Shown: positions 20,993 to 63,454 of the stretch, in pieces | How the letters are laid out: each line of letters starts with the position of its first letter | Position numbering within the stretch: position 1 is the first letter of the stretch | DNA from: Octopus vulgaris | Taxonomy: Eukaryota | Assembly (NCBI GenBank): GCA_951406725.2 | Contig: OX597816.1 | Location: 117,986,001-118,050,000 of the forward strand | Direction: 5' to 3' | DNA: 64,000 bases | The notes under the pieces: model-generated | What the model was told of the DNA's origin: nothing | Seen by the model: the letters and a program-made list of their open reading frames with translations, nothing else | The model's database searches: none | Program-made: the position numbers and the translations under genes

Positions 20993-21194
20993 GACGGGCT
21001 TCTTTCAGTTTCTGTCTACCAAATCCATTCACAAGGCTTTGGCCAGCCCGAGGCTATAGTAGAAGACACTTGCCCAAGGTGCCACGCAGTGGGGACTGAA
21101 CTCAGAACCATGGGGTTGGTAAGCAAGCTACTTACCACACAGCCGACACACACACGCACATTATGTAAATACGCATACACACAACCATACATAT

Positions 21195-21273
<79 letters not shown>

Positions 21274-21840
21274 CGAGCGGGCGTGTGCGTGTGTGGCTCG
21301 AATACACTGAGTTTTCTAGCTGACTTACATGAGAGAGAAAAATCTTCGAAAGATATACGCATATTACAGGTATAAGATTTCTACCTTTCATTTCAGCGTG
21401 AATCTACTATATCAACTTATTCGTTTGTCTGCACTATTTTTACGCTGTCACTAAGGATTTTTGTTGTTGTTGTTTTTAACACGCCGATGAGAAACTCAGA
21501 TATAGTTTTCTTTGGATTACCTTTATTCGTTTATTATATGCCTCCAATGTATGTTTGTATGTACGTACGTATGTTTGTATGTATGTATGTATGGATGGAT
21601 GGATGGATGGATGAATGGATGGATGTACATGTATGTATGTATATATGTATTTATGTATGTATGTATGTATGTATGTATGTATGTATGTGTGTATATATAT
21701 ATATATATTATATTAAATTAGAGATAAAACCACTATTAGGCAAATCATACAATGAAAAACTTAAGCCAATACATAAGATTAATTAATTTATATTATTTTA
21801 AATATATATCAAAATTATTAAAAAAAGATAATTAGTATAA

Positions 21841-21903
21841 CACTACGATCGTTTCATGGCTGTCCAATTCTTAAAATTTCGAGTTACAGTCATTCTTCAG
21901 GTG
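21841..21903 (-). ncRNA. Minimal type-I hammerhead ribozyme with canonical core
   Basis: Minus strand: CAC-CUGAAGA-AUGACUGU..ACAGCCAU-GAAAC-GAUC-GUA-GUG. Stem I is CAC/GUG, stem III is the palindrome ACGAUCGU, and the cleavage triplet is GUA. Confidence 0.85.
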
Positions 21904-22129
21904 ATTTTAATATTTAACTTAGCGAGGTTTAATCAATAAGAAAATGGAGGAATAGATTCCTTGTGTATTATGAATTTAAGGTAAAACATTTTACCTTCGT
22001 CCATATAATACAATAAATGAACTTATTGCATTGCAATTGTAAGCATTTATTTGGGTACTTCACTGGCAGTATATTGGATAAATGATATCCCATAGTGGGT
22101 TACACTCATAACCCCTATCTCACTTTGTA

Positions 22130-22212
<83 letters not shown>

Positions 22213-22217
22213 GAAAT

Positions 22218-22336
22218 TCTTATACTAGGATGTTGTTGACAGTGACTTCGAAGTTTCGGCCAGCTAAGCCATCATCCGACGATGGCTTAGATGGCCGAAA
22301 CTTCGACGTTACTGTCAACAGCATTCTTGTGTAAGA
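22218..22336. repeat. 59-bp-arm palindrome made of two head-to-head hammerhead-like motifs
   Basis: Arms 22218-22276 and 22278-22336 differ at about 8 positions. Each reads GAYGA-UGGCUUAG.UGGCC-GAAAC-UUCG-A.GUY. Confidence 0.8.
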
Positions 22337-22428
22337 CTAATAGACTTGTGCTGCATAGAATTATAGAGTAACCTATCAGATTAATGTAAAATTGTCTTTA
22401 TTGTAACTGAACATAAAAACAATCATGT

Positions 22429-23544
22429 ACCCGACGTTTTTTTTTTAAATTTTGGAATTTATTGCGTTTATAAATTTTGGAATCTAGTTTTTTCGAGAAT
22501 TCTATTTTTGAATCATTTTGGAATCTTTTTTTTTTTTCTAGTTAATTTTAGTTAATTTTTGTTTATTTTCAGATCATTATTTTGTTTATTTTCAGCTACT
22601 CGCGACATTTGTGCTGTGTATGGAGAGGGTGCCATAGCTGAAAGAACCGCTCGTGATTGGTATGTCAAGTTCAAAAATGGAAATTTTGATCTCAAAGATG
22701 CACCTCGTTCTGGCCATCCAGTTGAGTTCGATGAAGAGCGATTAAACAAACTTTTGCACGAAAATTCTCGTCAAACGACAAGGGAACTGGCAAAGAAAAT
22801 GGAATGCTCCCACACTGCTATAGAAAAGCATCTTCACTCGATGGGAAAGGTTCAGAAGTATGGAGCATGAGTTCCGCATGTTTTAAGTGACAACAGCAAA
22901 ATTCAACGCGTCACAATTTCCGCTGGTTTGCTTGCTCGCCACCGCTCAACTCATGGACACAAGCAACAATTTCTTTACCGAATCGTTACTAGCGACAAAA
23001 AATGGTGCCTGTGCATCAATATGAAGCAGCGTAAGGAAACAACCGATAACGCGTGTGAAACAAGATCATCCACGTAAAACGATGTTGTGCGTATGGTGGG
23101 ACTGGGAAGGGATTATTCATTACGAATTGCTTGGACGGAACCAAACGTCAACGTTCAACAGATGGAACAACTCAGCACGGCTATTCAAAAGAAAAGACCT
23201 AATCGGCAGCATGGAGTTCTTCTGCTGCACGACAACGCCCACCCTCATATCTCCAATGTGACCGAGGAAGCCATTTAAACGCATGACTGAGAAGTGCTGC
23301 CACACTCGCCGTACTCTCCTGATTTGGCACCAACGGATTTTCACCTCTTTCGATCTCTTTCAAAGGCTATGCGCGGAGTTTCGTTCAGTACTGATGCAGA
23401 ATTGGGTGATTTCTACCAACGAGATATTGAAAATCTTGTTGAACGTTGGGAAGAAGTTGTAAACAACAAGGGTGAATAGATTATTGATTAATTAGTTATT
23501 TTTTATTAAACCTTTTAAAAAACGGCGGGAACTTATTTGCCAAC

Positions 23545-23548
<4 letters not shown>
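22429..23548 (+). mobile_element. Mariner (DD34D) transposon with pseudogenised transposase
   Basis: WYVKFKNGNFDLKDAPRSGHP, (W>stop)VPH, MLCVWWD, HDNAHPH and YSPDLAPTDFHLF. Right TIR ...GGAACTTATTTGCCAACCCAA followed by TA; only a remnant of the left TIR remains. Confidence 0.9.
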
Positions 23549-23618
<70 letters not shown>

Positions 23619-23775
23619 TGTGATTTTTTATGTGAAGTCGTGTGTTGAAGCAGATATTGTTGTATTTAGGAATGGTCATTTTGCCAGTTTAGCCAATAAA
23701 AACACAAGCACTATATATTTGGTGTTACTTTGCTTCAGTGTTATTTATTTTTTACATTAATCTTAATCTTATTTC

Positions 23776-23820
23776 GGCCAGAGTTCTTTCGTCACACTCC
23801 TGTGACCGCATCAGTGGTCC
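23776..23820 (-). ncRNA. Variant hammerhead-like motif in the left (inverted) pseudo-LTR
   Basis: Exact reverse complement of 25578-25622. Confidence 0.65.
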
Positions 23821-24178
23821 TTTGTTTTCTTCTTACTTATTTGTGTCTCTCCTTACTAACCATCTGCCATTTTGTATTTATTTCTATTGTATGTCTTCAT
23901 TTGCGCATGCTTATATCTCTATGTGCGTTTATGTTTATTTAGTGTGTGTATGTGGGGGATGCCTGTAATATTTGTATCTTCTGTTTATATATGTTCATGT
24001 AATTTGTATTTTGCATTTTGTTTTTTGTTTTTTGTTTTTGTTGTTTTTGTTTATTCTTATTTTGTTCATGTGTTTACATCCACCCATTATTATCATTACA
24101 TATGCTTGTATGTATGTATGTATGTATGTATGTATGTATAACAACAATACTAGTAATAATAATAATAAATTGAATCGA

Positions 24179-24258
<80 letters not shown>

Positions 24259-24294
24259 CATATGCTTGTATGTATGTATAACAACAATACTAGT

Positions 24295-24933
24295 ATTTGC
24301 CCACTCTATAGGAACAAGTCATGGAACACTATAGAAAGGACAAAAAAGAAAATAGGGAAGGCCAACTCTTGGTATGATAGCCATAAATACCAGAGTGTCA
24401 TGTTCGTTGACACCACCCCTGGAGGTGAACTGGCGTATCGCTTTAGAAGGACCCTAGACAAACTTAAGCTAAGAATTAAGGTTGTTGAAAAGCCAGGCAA
24501 CCCTATCAAATCTATAATTGGTAGAACCTATCCTTTTAGTAGAACCCCCTGTACGGATAAGTACTGTACTGTATGTAGATTTAGCCCACAAACAAACTAT
24601 AAAGCCAGAAATGTAGTCTATAGTATAAGATGTATAGAGGAACGATGCAGTAACAAGACAACGACATACGTAAGGGAAACGGCAAGAAGCATAGGAGAGC
24701 GGGTAAATGAGCATTGGAGACAACTCAAGGAAGGTAAAAGCTCATCGATTCTGTACCAACACGCCGTACAAGAACACGGGGGATCAATCAATAACATAGA
24801 AATTAAAATATTATCCACACATAGATCAGATGCAACAATTAGACAAATAACAGAAGCTACACACATAATAGAAAATAAACCTAGCCTGAATAGAAAACTA
24901 GAATGGAGCACTAAAACACACCACAACATATGA
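24295..24933 (+). CDS. Penelope-like element C-terminal GIY-YIG endonuclease (truncated ORF, RT missing)
   Basis: Cys-rich linker CTDKYCTVC, then NVVYSIRC..C..TYVRETARSIGERVNEH...H...H...RQITEA..I...PSLN. The ORF is uninterrupted to its stop codon. Confidence 0.85.
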   Translation: MCPLYRNKSWNTIERTKKKIGKANSWYDSHKYQSVMFVDTTPGGELAYRFRRTLDKLKLRIKVVEKPGNPIKSIIGRTYPFSRTPCTDKYCTVCRFSPQTNYKARNVVYSIRCIEERCSNKTTTYVRETARSIGERVNEHWRQLKEGKSSSILYQHAVQEHGGSINNIEIKILSTHRSDATIRQITEATHIIENKPSLNRKLEWSTKTHHNI

Positions 24934-25033
24934 CGATAGAGGATCCTGAAAACATAATAAATACATAGATAAATAAATAAACTAATAGAATTAAATAACT
25001 ATATATATATATATGTATATGTATATGTATATG

Positions 25034-25067
<34 letters not shown>

Positions 25068-25153
25068 TATTCGATTCAATTTATTATTATTATTATTATT
25101 ACTAGTATTGTTGTTATACATACATACATACAAGCATATGTATATGTATATGT

Positions 25154-25229
<76 letters not shown>

Positions 25230-25577
25230 GATTCAATTTATTATTATTATTATTACTAGCATTGTTGTTATACATACATACATACATACATACAAGCATA
25301 TGTAATGATAATAATGGGTGGATGTAAACACATGAACAAAATAAGAATAAACAAAAACAACAAAAACAAAAATCAAAAAACAAAATGCAAAATACAAATT
25401 ACATGAACATATATAAACAGAAGATACAAATATTACAGGCATCACCCCACATACACACACTAAATAAACATAAACGCACATAGAGATATAAGCATGCGCA
25501 AATGAAGACATACAATAGAAATACAAAATGGCTGACGGTTAGTAAGGAGAGACACAAATAAGTGAGAAGAAAACAAA

Positions 25578-25622
25578 GGACCACTGATGCGGTCACAGGA
25601 GTGTGACGAAAGAACTCTGGCC
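25578..25622 (+). ncRNA. Variant hammerhead-like motif in the right pseudo-LTR
   Basis: CCA-CUGAUGCG-GUCACA-GGAG-UGUGAC-GAAA-GAAC-UC-UGG. Stems I, II and III are all present, but the core has CG in place of A9. Confidence 0.65.
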
Positions 25623-25734
25623 GAAATAAGATTAAGATTAATGTAAAAAATAAATAACACTGAAGCAAAGTAACACCAAATATATAGTGCGTGTGTTTTT
25701 ATTGGCTAAACTGGCAAAATGACCATTCCTAAAT

Positions 25735-25799
<65 letters not shown>

Positions 25800-25805
<6 letters not shown>

Positions 25806-48039: not shown

Positions 48040-48152
48040 TGTCAACAAGTCTCTTTGCTTGAATACCCAGGATTTTCCAGATTCTCGTTTATATATTACA
48101 TATCTAAGCGAGAATCTGGAAAATCCTGGGTATTCAAGCAAAGAGACTTGTT

Positions 48153-48156
<4 letters not shown>
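48040..48156. repeat. Perfect 48-bp inverted repeat with 21-nt spacer
   Basis: 48040-48087 is the exact reverse complement of 48109-48156. Confidence 0.95.
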
Positions 48157-48217
<61 letters not shown>

Positions 48218-48319
48218 ATAAAAACGGTAAGATAACAAAAGAAAGAAAGAGACTTCGATATTATGTAAATAGAGGAATTTATCTGTAAATGTATTATGTG
48301 ACAATTATTCAGTAGCCAA

Positions 48320-48380
48320 GATAAAACTCCGAGTTTCGGATGCCGAGGTGGAAATTCACGTCACCATCTCTTCAGTTATC
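48320..48380 (-). ncRNA. Minimal type-I hammerhead ribozyme motif
   Basis: Minus strand: GAUAA-CUGAAGA-GAUG...CAUCC-GAAAC-UCGGA-GUU-UUAUC. Stem I is 5 bp (GAUAA/UUAUC) and the triplet is GUU. Confidence 0.8.
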
Positions 48381-49751
48381 CGGCCATCGCAAAAACGCTA
48401 TGAAAAATGACCGTTATACAAAGAGAAATTACTGTGTTATTGACCGCTATTAAGACAAAAGAGCTATTCGAATGACCGCTAAGTAAGGTGGGAGTAAAAG
48501 TAAGGGGTTAAATAGTTCATAGTATTCGCGTAATTGCGCCTGTTTATACCTACACATGCGCACCCGCACACCCCACGCGCGTGCGCCAAAAAGTATATAT
48601 TCATCCACCCTCACTTGAAAACGTACACACCCTCACTCTCACTACAAACAACGGCAGTAATTTTATTCAGCTGAATACATGTCATTGGTTGAGATTTCCG
48701 AAATACGACAATTTTAACAAGAAATAACTTCCAAAATATAGCATTTTCTCAACAACGCCAAGAGTAAAAGATGTTTTATGCGACACATTCTACGAGTATA
48801 CGAAGTTTGAAAGTGTTTAGTTACAAATAATTACTTTTTAAATCTGTCGGTCAAAAAGGTAAAGATCTTTCAAATAAATATATAAATAGTTAGGTCAAAT
48901 GAAAGAGGTTCATGGAAAAATGGTACATGATATGAAATCAAAGAAATTTGACTGAATAAAAAAAAAAGCTCAGCGGTGGTGCCCCAGCATGGCCGCGGCC
49001 TTCGGGCTAAAACATTTTTAAGGATTTATAAGATACATTTATAGCCTCTTCACTATCTGCTGGGGTGCCCTTTTCGTGATATATTTCTTCACCAAGAAGT
49101 TAAAGAGAATAAATTATTGAAATTAGACATTACTCATTTTACCATATTTTAGACGTCATGTTTTGAAACTGAAAATTATCAAACTAGACATTAGTGTGGG
49201 GATAAATTGACTTGGAATCCAACAGAGAAAAGAATATTGATTGTTAAACGCTAAAAATTATCTAGATATTTTATTATTAGCAACCTCAATTGCAATCGTG
49301 AAAGTTATAATGAAAGTTGAGGAAAAATTTCTGGTAAAAAGGCCCTGCCACCTGACTCTTTCATCTTCAACAATTATGCTGACCAATTTTTACTCATAAA
49401 GATGATGCAACAGTACAAAATAATGATGAACACTTGCAATGTAATGATTTCAAACAGGTTGGGAGAAAATGACGAGTAATCAAATGTTACTAATTTTGCC
49501 CCCTCCCCTCCCTAATGATAAGTTTCGGAGTTTATACTTGGTTGGTTTATGTTTGTATCTGAAATCGTGCGTTAAAATAGCAGAGTGATGATAGCCATTA
49601 AAAACACGTTCATACATTAACTTTTGTTTATTTTATTTCTTGATAGTATTGTATATTAAAACTGTCAATAAGTTTCGGACTGATCAATGAAAATGTTTAC
49701 AAACATGCAAGCATGAGGTATAAATTGGTTTTGTTACTGTGTGAAACTAGT

Positions 49752-62235: not shown

Positions 62236-62627
62236 AAAATATATATATGTATATATTGCTTAGGCATAGCAATACTAATTACTTGGTGTTAGAATTCAGT
62301 ATACACATGCTTCATGAAAAAAGGGTCACTTGAGTACAGAGCGAAATAAGAGATTACATAAATAACAGGGGAACAAGAAATTATGTATTGAACTTCATTG
62401 GCTTACAAGTGTTTCTACCATAGATGCAATGTGCTTATAGCCTTGTGCTTGTGTATCACCTTATATCTTTGTCAGAGCTTTAAAAATGAAGTGCAATCTT
62501 TTTGCTTTCTCAGATAAAACTGCGCTTCATTTTTGAAGCTGTGCTAAAGTTATAAGGTGATACACAAGCACTGAACAATGAGTGCATTTTTTACATTTGA
62601 CGGATATTTGTCCTCATCTTGTTTGTT

Positions 62628-62678
62628 GTTAACACAATGTTTTGGCTGATATACCCTCCAGCCTTCATTGGGTGTCTT
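62628..62678 (-). ncRNA. Degenerate hammerhead motif (core mutated)
   Basis: CCAAUGA-A-GGCUG-GAGGGUAUAU-CAGCC-AAAAC-AUUGU-GUU. Stem II is intact but CUGA has become CCAA and GAAA has become AAAA. Confidence 0.45.
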
Positions 62679-63454
62679 GGGGAATAAAACTTAAACTTAA
62701 TTAACCTATTAATATTTGTTTTTATATCTATCACCCCATTTTGGCCACCCCATTATTATCCTGTTTTCTTCAACTAGATCTTTCCACTGCCCCCAAGGGG
62801 GCAGTAATGCCCACTTTGGGAACCACTGATATATATAATCCAACCCATGCCAGCATGGCAAGCTGACGTTAAATGATGATGATACATATGACATCTATTT
62901 TCTTTCATTTTCCCCCATGTTTATTGAAATTTCAGTGTTCTTCAGTATAGTAATTTTATTTCATTGCATTGTGAGTTGATATTATTACTGCTTGTGCATT
63001 TTCATAACATTGTTATATTTATATTTCTATATTGCTATTGTATATCATCATTGTAAGTGTATTATATGTTGTTGTCATATGTGTTATTACTGTATTGTAT
63101 GGTATTTTCTACCACAATGAGACTGGCCTCTACTTTTCCAAGCTAGCTGTTCTCCCAATTCACACTTCTCTATTCCTATGTATCCTTTCTCCAACAAGCA
63201 TTGCACTAATCTCTGTGCCCATTCTTCTTTCTCCAGAACATTGGCCTTCTGGATTTTCTTCTTTGTAAATGTTTTTTCTATAGCCATAAACTAATGAGAA
63301 GGCATGGCTGTGTGGTTAAAAAGCTTGCTTCTCAAACATGTGGTCCTGGGTTCAGCCTCACCTTGGGCTAGTATCTTTTTCAATGACCCTGGGTCAGCCA
63401 AAGCCTCGTGAGTGGATTTGATTGACAATAGCTGAATGAAGCCTGTCATATATT

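Follow-up and report, generated by a model that had tools for sequence, protein, structure and literature searches.

Layout of the island and the copies of family A

We analysed a 64,000-nucleotide window of the Octopus vulgaris genome (assembly GCA_951406725.2, contig OX597816.1, positions 117,986,001 to 118,050,000; coordinates below are those of the window), in which a (TA)n-rich island at 21712-25800 holds sequences resembling minimal type-I hammerhead ribozymes. These belong to three families, here called A, B and C, and two further families, D and E, lie elsewhere in the window. Our results make it quite probable that the island consists of three insertions of the ends of Penelope-like elements (PLEs), that a single GT-AG intron is precisely missing from the family A copy, the template of which was likely a sense transcript, spliced but not cut, and that family C is one 5'-inverted insertion.

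The original prediction counted five hammerhead motifs from three families in the island. Motif-like sequence is present at all five places, but these amount to three insertions, and one of the motifs is canonical. Specifically, the descriptor required CUGANGA, optionally one extra base, a stem II of 3 bp or more, GAAA, a short stem III, NUH and a stem I of 3 bp or more. In 21712-25800 it has one strict match, on the minus strand (core 21900), and two further matches when one core mismatch is allowed (core 25584 on the plus strand and core 23814 on the minus strand). The region thus exceeds its dinucleotide shuffles, of which 0/1000 contain a strict match, 28/1000 one one-mismatch match and 0/1000 two; shuffles of the whole window give a strict match in 3/60 and three relaxed matches in 0/60. 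The two relaxed matches are arms of the same family C insertion and are therefore not independent. The pair at 22218 has no descriptor match even with one mismatch, U4 being changed in both arms; it forms a palindrome whose stem I was lost at the fold-back junction, and a good hammerhead is found only in other copies of family B. The invariant core is accordingly intact in the window copy of A and altered in those of C (C at position 9, hereafter C9) and B (U4 changed, no stem I), with the CUGANGA and GAAA core, stems I and II and NUH all present in the window copy of A and in the A9 form of C. An Rfam scan returned 79 matches at E<=5, comprising microsatellite and hairpin models and no hammerhead, and single-strand folding of the motifs gave z-scores of +1.2 to -1.8, none significant, which speaks neither for nor against them. 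A rewired (non-circularly permuted) hammerhead was considered for family A and dropped by eye, as the motifs read in ordinary type-I order.

Each motif-bearing segment had also been described as bounded by (TA)n. This holds for family C, which lies between (TA)34 at 23548-23615 and (TA)31 at 25741-25802, the left and right halves of its target, but not for A or B. Family A abuts TA at its 3' end only, in the form of a (TA)n run at 21692-21708 that served as insertion target judging from the sequence and from other family A 3' ends; on its 5' side lie ~190 bp (21940-22132) that a DNA search matched only at their own locus and that fall outside the family. Family B has TA on its left, a (TA)40 array at 22133-22212, and a mariner relic on its right.

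The family A copy covers 21709-21939 on the minus strand, and comparison of copies together with linkage to a parent open reading frame (ORF) points to a spliced, solo pseudo-long terminal repeat (pLTR) retrocopy of a Hydra-clade PLE in short-tail form. Its exon 1 (21914-21937, minus strand) meets exon 2 at a splice junction, 21914|21913, and begins at the modal 5' end of the family (21937), the A of an initiator-like TCATT. The canonical minimal type-I hammerhead follows at 21841-21903 on the same strand, with a CUGAAGA core, a long stem II, a palindromic stem/loop III and a predicted cut after 21844.

The 30 best DNA matches to this copy all begin within a few bases of its 5' end. Sharing no upstream DNA (0/30), they first suggested a self-contained short element, a view that was dropped because the sample is query-biased and an unbiased pattern sample overturned it (259 matches, the first 30 of which were read; some rows are arms of one locus). 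In the long form, the first 24-30 bases of the short form stand ~900 bp upstream and continue into GTATGT, and the remainder resumes after TTTTAG, such that the window copy is the exact exon 1/exon 2 join of the unspliced copies; the GT-AG intron measures 885 nt in copy L264. The first 30 pattern matches comprise 13 unspliced copies, 10 spliced from the pLTR donor, one spliced from a second donor and six truncated. Exact 27-mer junctions number 102 spliced, 72 unspliced and eight second-donor spliced genome-wide, counts that are lower bounds and depend on the pattern. The second donor (GTAAGT) lies in the 3' untranslated region (UTR), ~250 nt after the stop codon, and uses the same acceptor as the pLTR donor; its splicing removes ~2 kb including the start site. 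It could be read in 27 of 30 endonuclease-anchored loci, intact in 21 and joined to exon 2 in six, across several diverged subfamilies, and in the endonuclease-anchored long loci the pLTR donor is intact in 15 and joined in two. Both main exon-1/exon-2 haplotypes occur spliced and unspliced.

Among 38 junction rows, one is a false call (L254) and one a true spliced copy reaching into the promoter (L308). Relative to a fixed anchor, spliced copies begin 5-12 bases upstream, and in 17 of the 38 rows the first base is the A of TCATT, a putative initiator. They carry no poly(A), end at two fixed 3' positions and often form head-to-head pairs. A pattern for the 5' boundary turned up just two fold-back junctions. 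Family A 3' ends fall at ~155 and ~230, and 14/26 abut TA against a background of ~4%.

The long form has the order Hydra-type ORF, 3' UTR, start site, intron, hammerhead and tail; the ORF end upstream of it has Hydra features and is contiguous with the same 3' UTR in most of the 30 endonuclease-anchored loci. A 5' pLTR also precedes the ORF, and head-to-head pLTR pairs occur. In a sister subfamily, frames of ~840 aa follow a related pLTR and tail, and one 841-aa frame contains YRDD and YIGST (read by eye and regular expression) and, at residue 44, KWK in place of the RWK of the Hydra clade. A CxCX5C linker, DKT, and CxxC and CxH around the end of the endonuclease (EN) domain, all Hydra-clade features, are present in family A. 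Searches with this full sister-subfamily ORF and with the full family C ORF gave no match in Pfam for either and nothing useful among PDB sequences; the A and C proteins barely align with each other. Decayed reverse transcriptase (RT)/GIY-YIG frames of further PLE families lie beside family A copies at L262:1698-3237 and L303:1635-2651.

Family C and position 9 of its hammerhead

The stretch 23616-25744 is a single 5'-truncated, 5'-inverted insertion into a (TA)n array, its source, to judge from related copies, being a young autonomous PLE. It comprises an inverted pLTR arm on the minus strand (23616-24263; hammerhead core 23814-23808, C at position 9), the 5'-truncated 3' end of an ORF on the plus strand (24295-24933; CX4CxxC linker and GIY-YIG, 91% identical to an intact 1312-aa frame) and, also on the plus strand, the 3' UTR and pLTR (24934-25744) with internal TA/TACA runs, a C9 hammerhead core at 25584-25590 and a predicted cut after 25617. 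The inverted arms, 23654-24131 and 25270-25744, thus flank the GIY-YIG fragment, and the copy ends ~22 nt into the next ORF start (short tail).

The genome holds at least 150 close relatives of the GIY-YIG fragment, several of them within open frames of 1311-1312 aa, and fetched copies show pLTR, ORF and pLTR in 4.59-kb tandems and in inverted pairs. The 1312-aa frame contains YVDD and YVGET, CX4CxxC at 1186 and HxxxH at 1256 (read by eye and regular expression); a few of its listed homologues carry RT/GIY-YIG Pfam labels, and a protein labelled Octopus vulgaris is 99% identical to it. The linker and the CCHH motif would fit either Neptune or Nematis. One family C ORF (L061:3763-7701) has an N/S-rich insert of ~250 aa before the RT, resembling the N-rich inserts described for A. 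vaga Penelopes (PMC3846280).

Family C 3' ends lie at ~165 and ~220, some 55 nt apart. Together with family A they bear out the TA targeting that had been proposed, 3' ends abutting TA in 26/29 C9 copies and 14/26 copies of A as compared with 213/5000 random positions. A cluster of 5' ends (18 of 60 rows) lies 51-72 nt upstream of stem I and likely marks the start site; upstream of the hammerhead, 60 motif rows showed no splice-like jump.

All 83 motif rows of loci L001-L065 have C at core position 9, and exact 21-mers number 3,376 for C9 and 728 for A9. Median divergence from the own majority is 5.1% for A9 (n=33) and 1.8% for C9 (n=48), the former set having been sampled by pattern and the latter by protein search. 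Four of 30 A9 copies reach a diverged ORF, and C9 is the form present in each of the five fetched regions that hold long frames. As A9 copies are older and the long frames are C9, the canonical base is ancestral and was lost in the newest burst. The hammerhead core contains a sheared pair between A9 and G12. With G12 being the general base of the reaction (PMC6155905), A9C would be expected to inactivate the ribozyme. Family C stem III is not self-complementary (+1.4 kcal/mol), and a sample of 30 copies with the anchor 2 nt past the cut includes none that begins at the cut. The newest subfamily thus exchanged A9 for C and kept spreading, which suggests that cleavage is probably dispensable for family C.

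Several further observations concern this position and its surroundings. Two copies, L352 and L354, have the hammerhead core destroyed in the same way, and the youngest copies with intact ORFs also alter the third base of the cleavage triplet. Older A9 copies abut TA in 9/31 as against 26/29 for C9, and some end in (TAA)n; the target preference may have shifted from A9 to C9, or the sampling may differ (A9 from L152-L181, C9 from L031-L060, with loci of an unrelated repeat as background only). In contigs of four public runs A9 occurs beside C9, accounting for 13-16% of depth in two large runs; it reaches 73% in one run merely guessed to be RNA, figures that come from different organisms and from contigs only. 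Over window positions 25386-25740, run X2 has 20 A>G places and one T>C place, an editing-like pattern from another organism in a run guessed to be RNA and without matched DNA.

Families B, D and E and neighbouring sequence

Family B in the window is a fold-back of two decayed arms. The inverted arm (22218-22279, minus strand) holds the 3' part of a hammerhead plus ~30 nt, with a damaged core and no stem I, and the direct arm (22275-22422, plus strand) a decayed hammerhead, with U4 changed to C and a broken palindrome in loop III, and a 3' tail. The family is old: copies are 80-86% identical, many with a good minimal hammerhead, and stem/loop III is palindromic in most. Old copies have ~1 kb of upstream DNA in common, and the 1.4 kb upstream of B revealed no RT or EN on the sense strand. 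Adjoining it on the plus strand is a Tc1/mariner relic unrelated to the hammerheads (22423-23549), with a Mos1-type helix-turn-helix, a broken transposase and the right terminal inverted repeat only.

The additional families proposed near 48320 and 62628 do correspond to hammerhead-shaped family sequences (D and E), although the window motifs themselves have no descriptor match. Family D (48214-48650, minus strand; hammerhead core 48375-48369, 5' limit approximate) is the 5'-truncated 3' end of a Hydra-type PLE: three long copies run into a Hydra-type endonuclease, longer copies show the CxCX5C linker, CxxC and CxH, and 3' flanks show a (TA)n preference. In the hammerhead (48312-48385), stem II has one unpaired base on its 3' side, fixed across the 24 loci read.

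Family E is represented by a decayed hammerhead tail at 62581-62684 on the minus strand. In its other copies a tRNA-like head (A and B boxes recognised by eye) precedes (AAT)n and then the hammerhead tail; ARAGORN reported no tRNA gene in 6/6 loci. Among loci L183-L201, L192 holds 18 matches and L193 a 158-bp three-unit array. Alone among the five families, E looks non-autonomous, and it is a candidate short interspersed element (SINE) that Penelope-like enzymes might carry. Directly 3' of it lies a long imperfect palindrome (62436-62605). Elsewhere in the window, 48050-48155 is a near-perfect inverted repeat with ~45-bp arms and a short TA-rich centre beside (TA)29, resembling a miniature inverted-repeat transposable element or a fold-back end, and 21000-21146 is a common short interspersed repeat, SINE-like and present in many other loci.

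Templates, introns and ribozymes

For family A, the spliced state and the start site are read from DNA, and cleavage is predicted. Exact spliced copies with PLE-type ends imply sense templates in this family, and spliced and long copies that span the cut imply templates that were uncut. The GIY-YIG nuclease would nick (TA)n and the RT would start inside the RNA, at the tail. From an RNA started in the pLTR and spliced, such internal initiation would produce a promoter-less stub of 230-310 bp, as in the window; a read-through transcript would produce long copies, competent only where the promoter-bearing intron region is left in. Under such a scheme, PLEs would retain introns through RNA geometry and selection and not through an antisense template. 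An antisense template has been proposed for PLE intron retention, with an unspliced sense template left open (PMC3846280); the spliced copies argue against the antisense account, at least for family A, while leaving room for antisense templates behind other copies. Introns are likely kept in PLEs only because spliced copies are dead ends. The chances are even, in our judgement, for the more general proposition that PLEs copy sense RNA in any splicing state, that intron retention is a selection effect (spliced RNA yielding promoter-less stubs, or long copies that are crippled, which accumulate in the genome and pass for ribozyme mini-elements) and that retrotransposition does not need the ribozyme, given that the top recent burst has a broken hammerhead.

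Several observations weigh against the account of the island given here. The closest family A subfamily has no full-length frame, the longest being 745 aa and 5'-truncated, and the intact frames of ~840 aa sit in the sister subfamily, 83% identical in the EN region. Two long copies, L308 and L274 (the latter with an imprecise junction), are spliced yet keep upstream promoter DNA, and spliced copies are thus not always promoter-less. The 30 best-match loci were picked by a query starting at the window 5' end, which inflates the 5'-end mode without hiding longer extensions. No published activity measurement of an A9C hammerhead was found, in a search that did not extend to subscription journals. 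Finally, family A may cleave in part. Of 30 downstream-anchored copies, 14 start between the cut and the anchor 23-29 nt downstream, three of them within 2 nt of the cut (read by eye), compared with 2/26 for family C (Fisher p=0.002; by locus, 11/24 for A and 2/23 for C, p=0.008), an excess qualified by the AT-rich, fold-back-prone nature of the zone past the cut. The core is invariant except at N7 in 10 subfamily representatives, and the stem III palindrome could form an 8-bp duplex of -10.0 kcal/mol, as against +1.4 for C. Stem covariation in family A proved modest: 89% of cells are paired (11/500 shuffles are as high), and 2/12 pairs change on both sides (220/500 shuffles).

The original prediction saw in the island small, ribozyme-bearing, non-autonomous retroelements, and, in the form that makes them dependent on hammerhead cleavage, this appears quite unlikely. 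Several families unrelated in sequence do coexist, as it had claimed, with a TA bias, E and possibly B lack a coding partner (the ~1 kb of upstream DNA shared by B copies yielded no sense-strand RT/EN), and family A 5' ends are enriched just past the cut. Its link to PLEs also stands. The non-autonomy does not hold for A, C and D, longer copies of which are contiguous with RT/GIY-YIG or GIY-YIG frames of their own. In addition, the cut site lies inside the A and C copies of the window, and the youngest C copies have a changed core. A related view, in which the short family A copies form an independent retrozyme- or SINE-like element that arose once, from a copy either spliced or deleted, and spreads with PLE enzymes, is unlikely as well. 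It would explain why ~100 short copies are almost identical and start at a fixed 5' end, with no upstream DNA in common across 30 loci; an initiator inside the element might also outlast splicing, and animal retrozymes have been proposed as PLE derivatives (bioRxiv 10.64898/2026.07.22.740005). It does not sit well with the occurrence of both main haplotypes in spliced and unspliced form, with a second donor joined to the same acceptor in diverged subfamilies, or with the lack of head-to-tail arrays of the short unit in the loci examined.

Were the spliced copies processed pseudogenes made in trans by enzymes of long interspersed elements (LINEs), they would be silent on the PLE template. In O. 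vulgaris LINEs are numerous and have been active recently (PMC13282606), but in the copies no poly(A) was seen, their 3' ends coincide with the two PLE tail positions and in many cases abut (TA)n, and they formed head-to-head inversions, leaving this explanation very improbable. It is possible, if doubtful, that C9 is a working hammerhead variant, rescued for example by the element's own protein, and not a decayed one. Thousands of copies retain every other core base together with stems I and II, Poseidon_Ac needs its protein for hammerhead cleavage (PMC11167929) and other natural core variants are known (PMC4209133); conversely, retention needs no selection in a burst this young (1.8%), the core is destroyed in two further copies and stem III is poorly able to dimerise.

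The PLE ends are themselves mostly ordinary, with the spliced copies and the A9C burst as two informative details. Families A and C show what is expected of endonuclease-bearing PLEs, namely a single ORF with RT and C-terminal GIY-YIG, tandem or inverted pLTRs and an optional 3' tail with two ends. Hydra-clade PLEs (Craig et al. 2021, PMC8557442) share with A and D the C-terminal GIY-YIG, CxCX5C, CxxC, CxH, canonical hammerhead and (TA)n, and with A also the DKT motif. Compared by description only, the family A unit (~840-aa ORF and ~2.3 kb of 3' UTR/pLTR) is longer and has a mapped pLTR intron and spliced genomic copies, whereas Hydra-1_Obim, an O. bimaculoides element with (TA)n preference, is listed without a pLTR (PMC8557442 supplement). 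As in family A, transcription of D. virilis Penelope starts in the pLTR, an intron of the 5' UTR follows within a few dozen nt (Schostak 2008, PMC2377424) and its acceptor stands beside hammerhead stem I (Cervera and de la Pena 2014, PMC4209133); the intron is 75 nt there and 885 nt in family A, and genomic copies of D. virilis Penelope are described as keeping it, unlike family A, in which spliced acceptor junctions outnumber unspliced ones (102 versus 72). Neptune and Nematis PLEs (PMC8557442) resemble C in RT, CX2-5CxxC linker, CCHH GIY-YIG, tandem/inverted pLTRs and microsatellite targets, the derived A9C core of the youngest subfamily setting C apart. Poseidon_Ac (Frangieh 2024, PMC11167929) has, like A and C, two fixed 3' ends, an AT-rich target and copies from uncut RNA; both 3' ends of family A lie upstream of the sister-subfamily ATG, and the two elements belong to different clades. 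In vitro, Poseidon_Ac initiates reverse transcription internally and does not require hammerhead cleavage (PMC11167929). Non-LTR retrozymes (Li et al. 2026, bioRxiv 10.64898/2026.07.22.740005) are, like the copies here, short, non-coding, PLE-derived and equipped with a type-I hammerhead, but they are defined as tandem units, whereas A, B and C occur solo or head-to-head, A and C with coding parents; tandem hammerhead units were not seen for A, B or C, and for E only as the array mentioned above.

The general picture drawn by the original prediction was thus already known, and for A, C and D it was wrong on autonomy. Many minimal-hammerhead families per genome have been described (PMC4209133), and 'uncatalogued' was too strong a word, since O. 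vulgaris is reported to have 31 PLE families with recent activity (PMC13282606) and Hydra-1_Obim is listed (PMC8557442). No report of spliced genomic PLE copies or of an A9C burst was found in the literature searched, subscription journals and bioRxiv supplements excepted. The reason for intron retention in PLEs and the function of their hammerheads are stated as open questions (PMC8557442; PMC3846280). For one family, spliced junctions with PLE-type ends decide the question of the template from DNA alone, and the junction scan can be applied as a test to any PLE library. The A9/C9 pair offers a natural experiment on the importance of hammerhead cleavage. Among the short hammerhead repeats met in genome annotation, many may arise as processing by-products of autonomous PLEs, as opposed to being elements in their own right.

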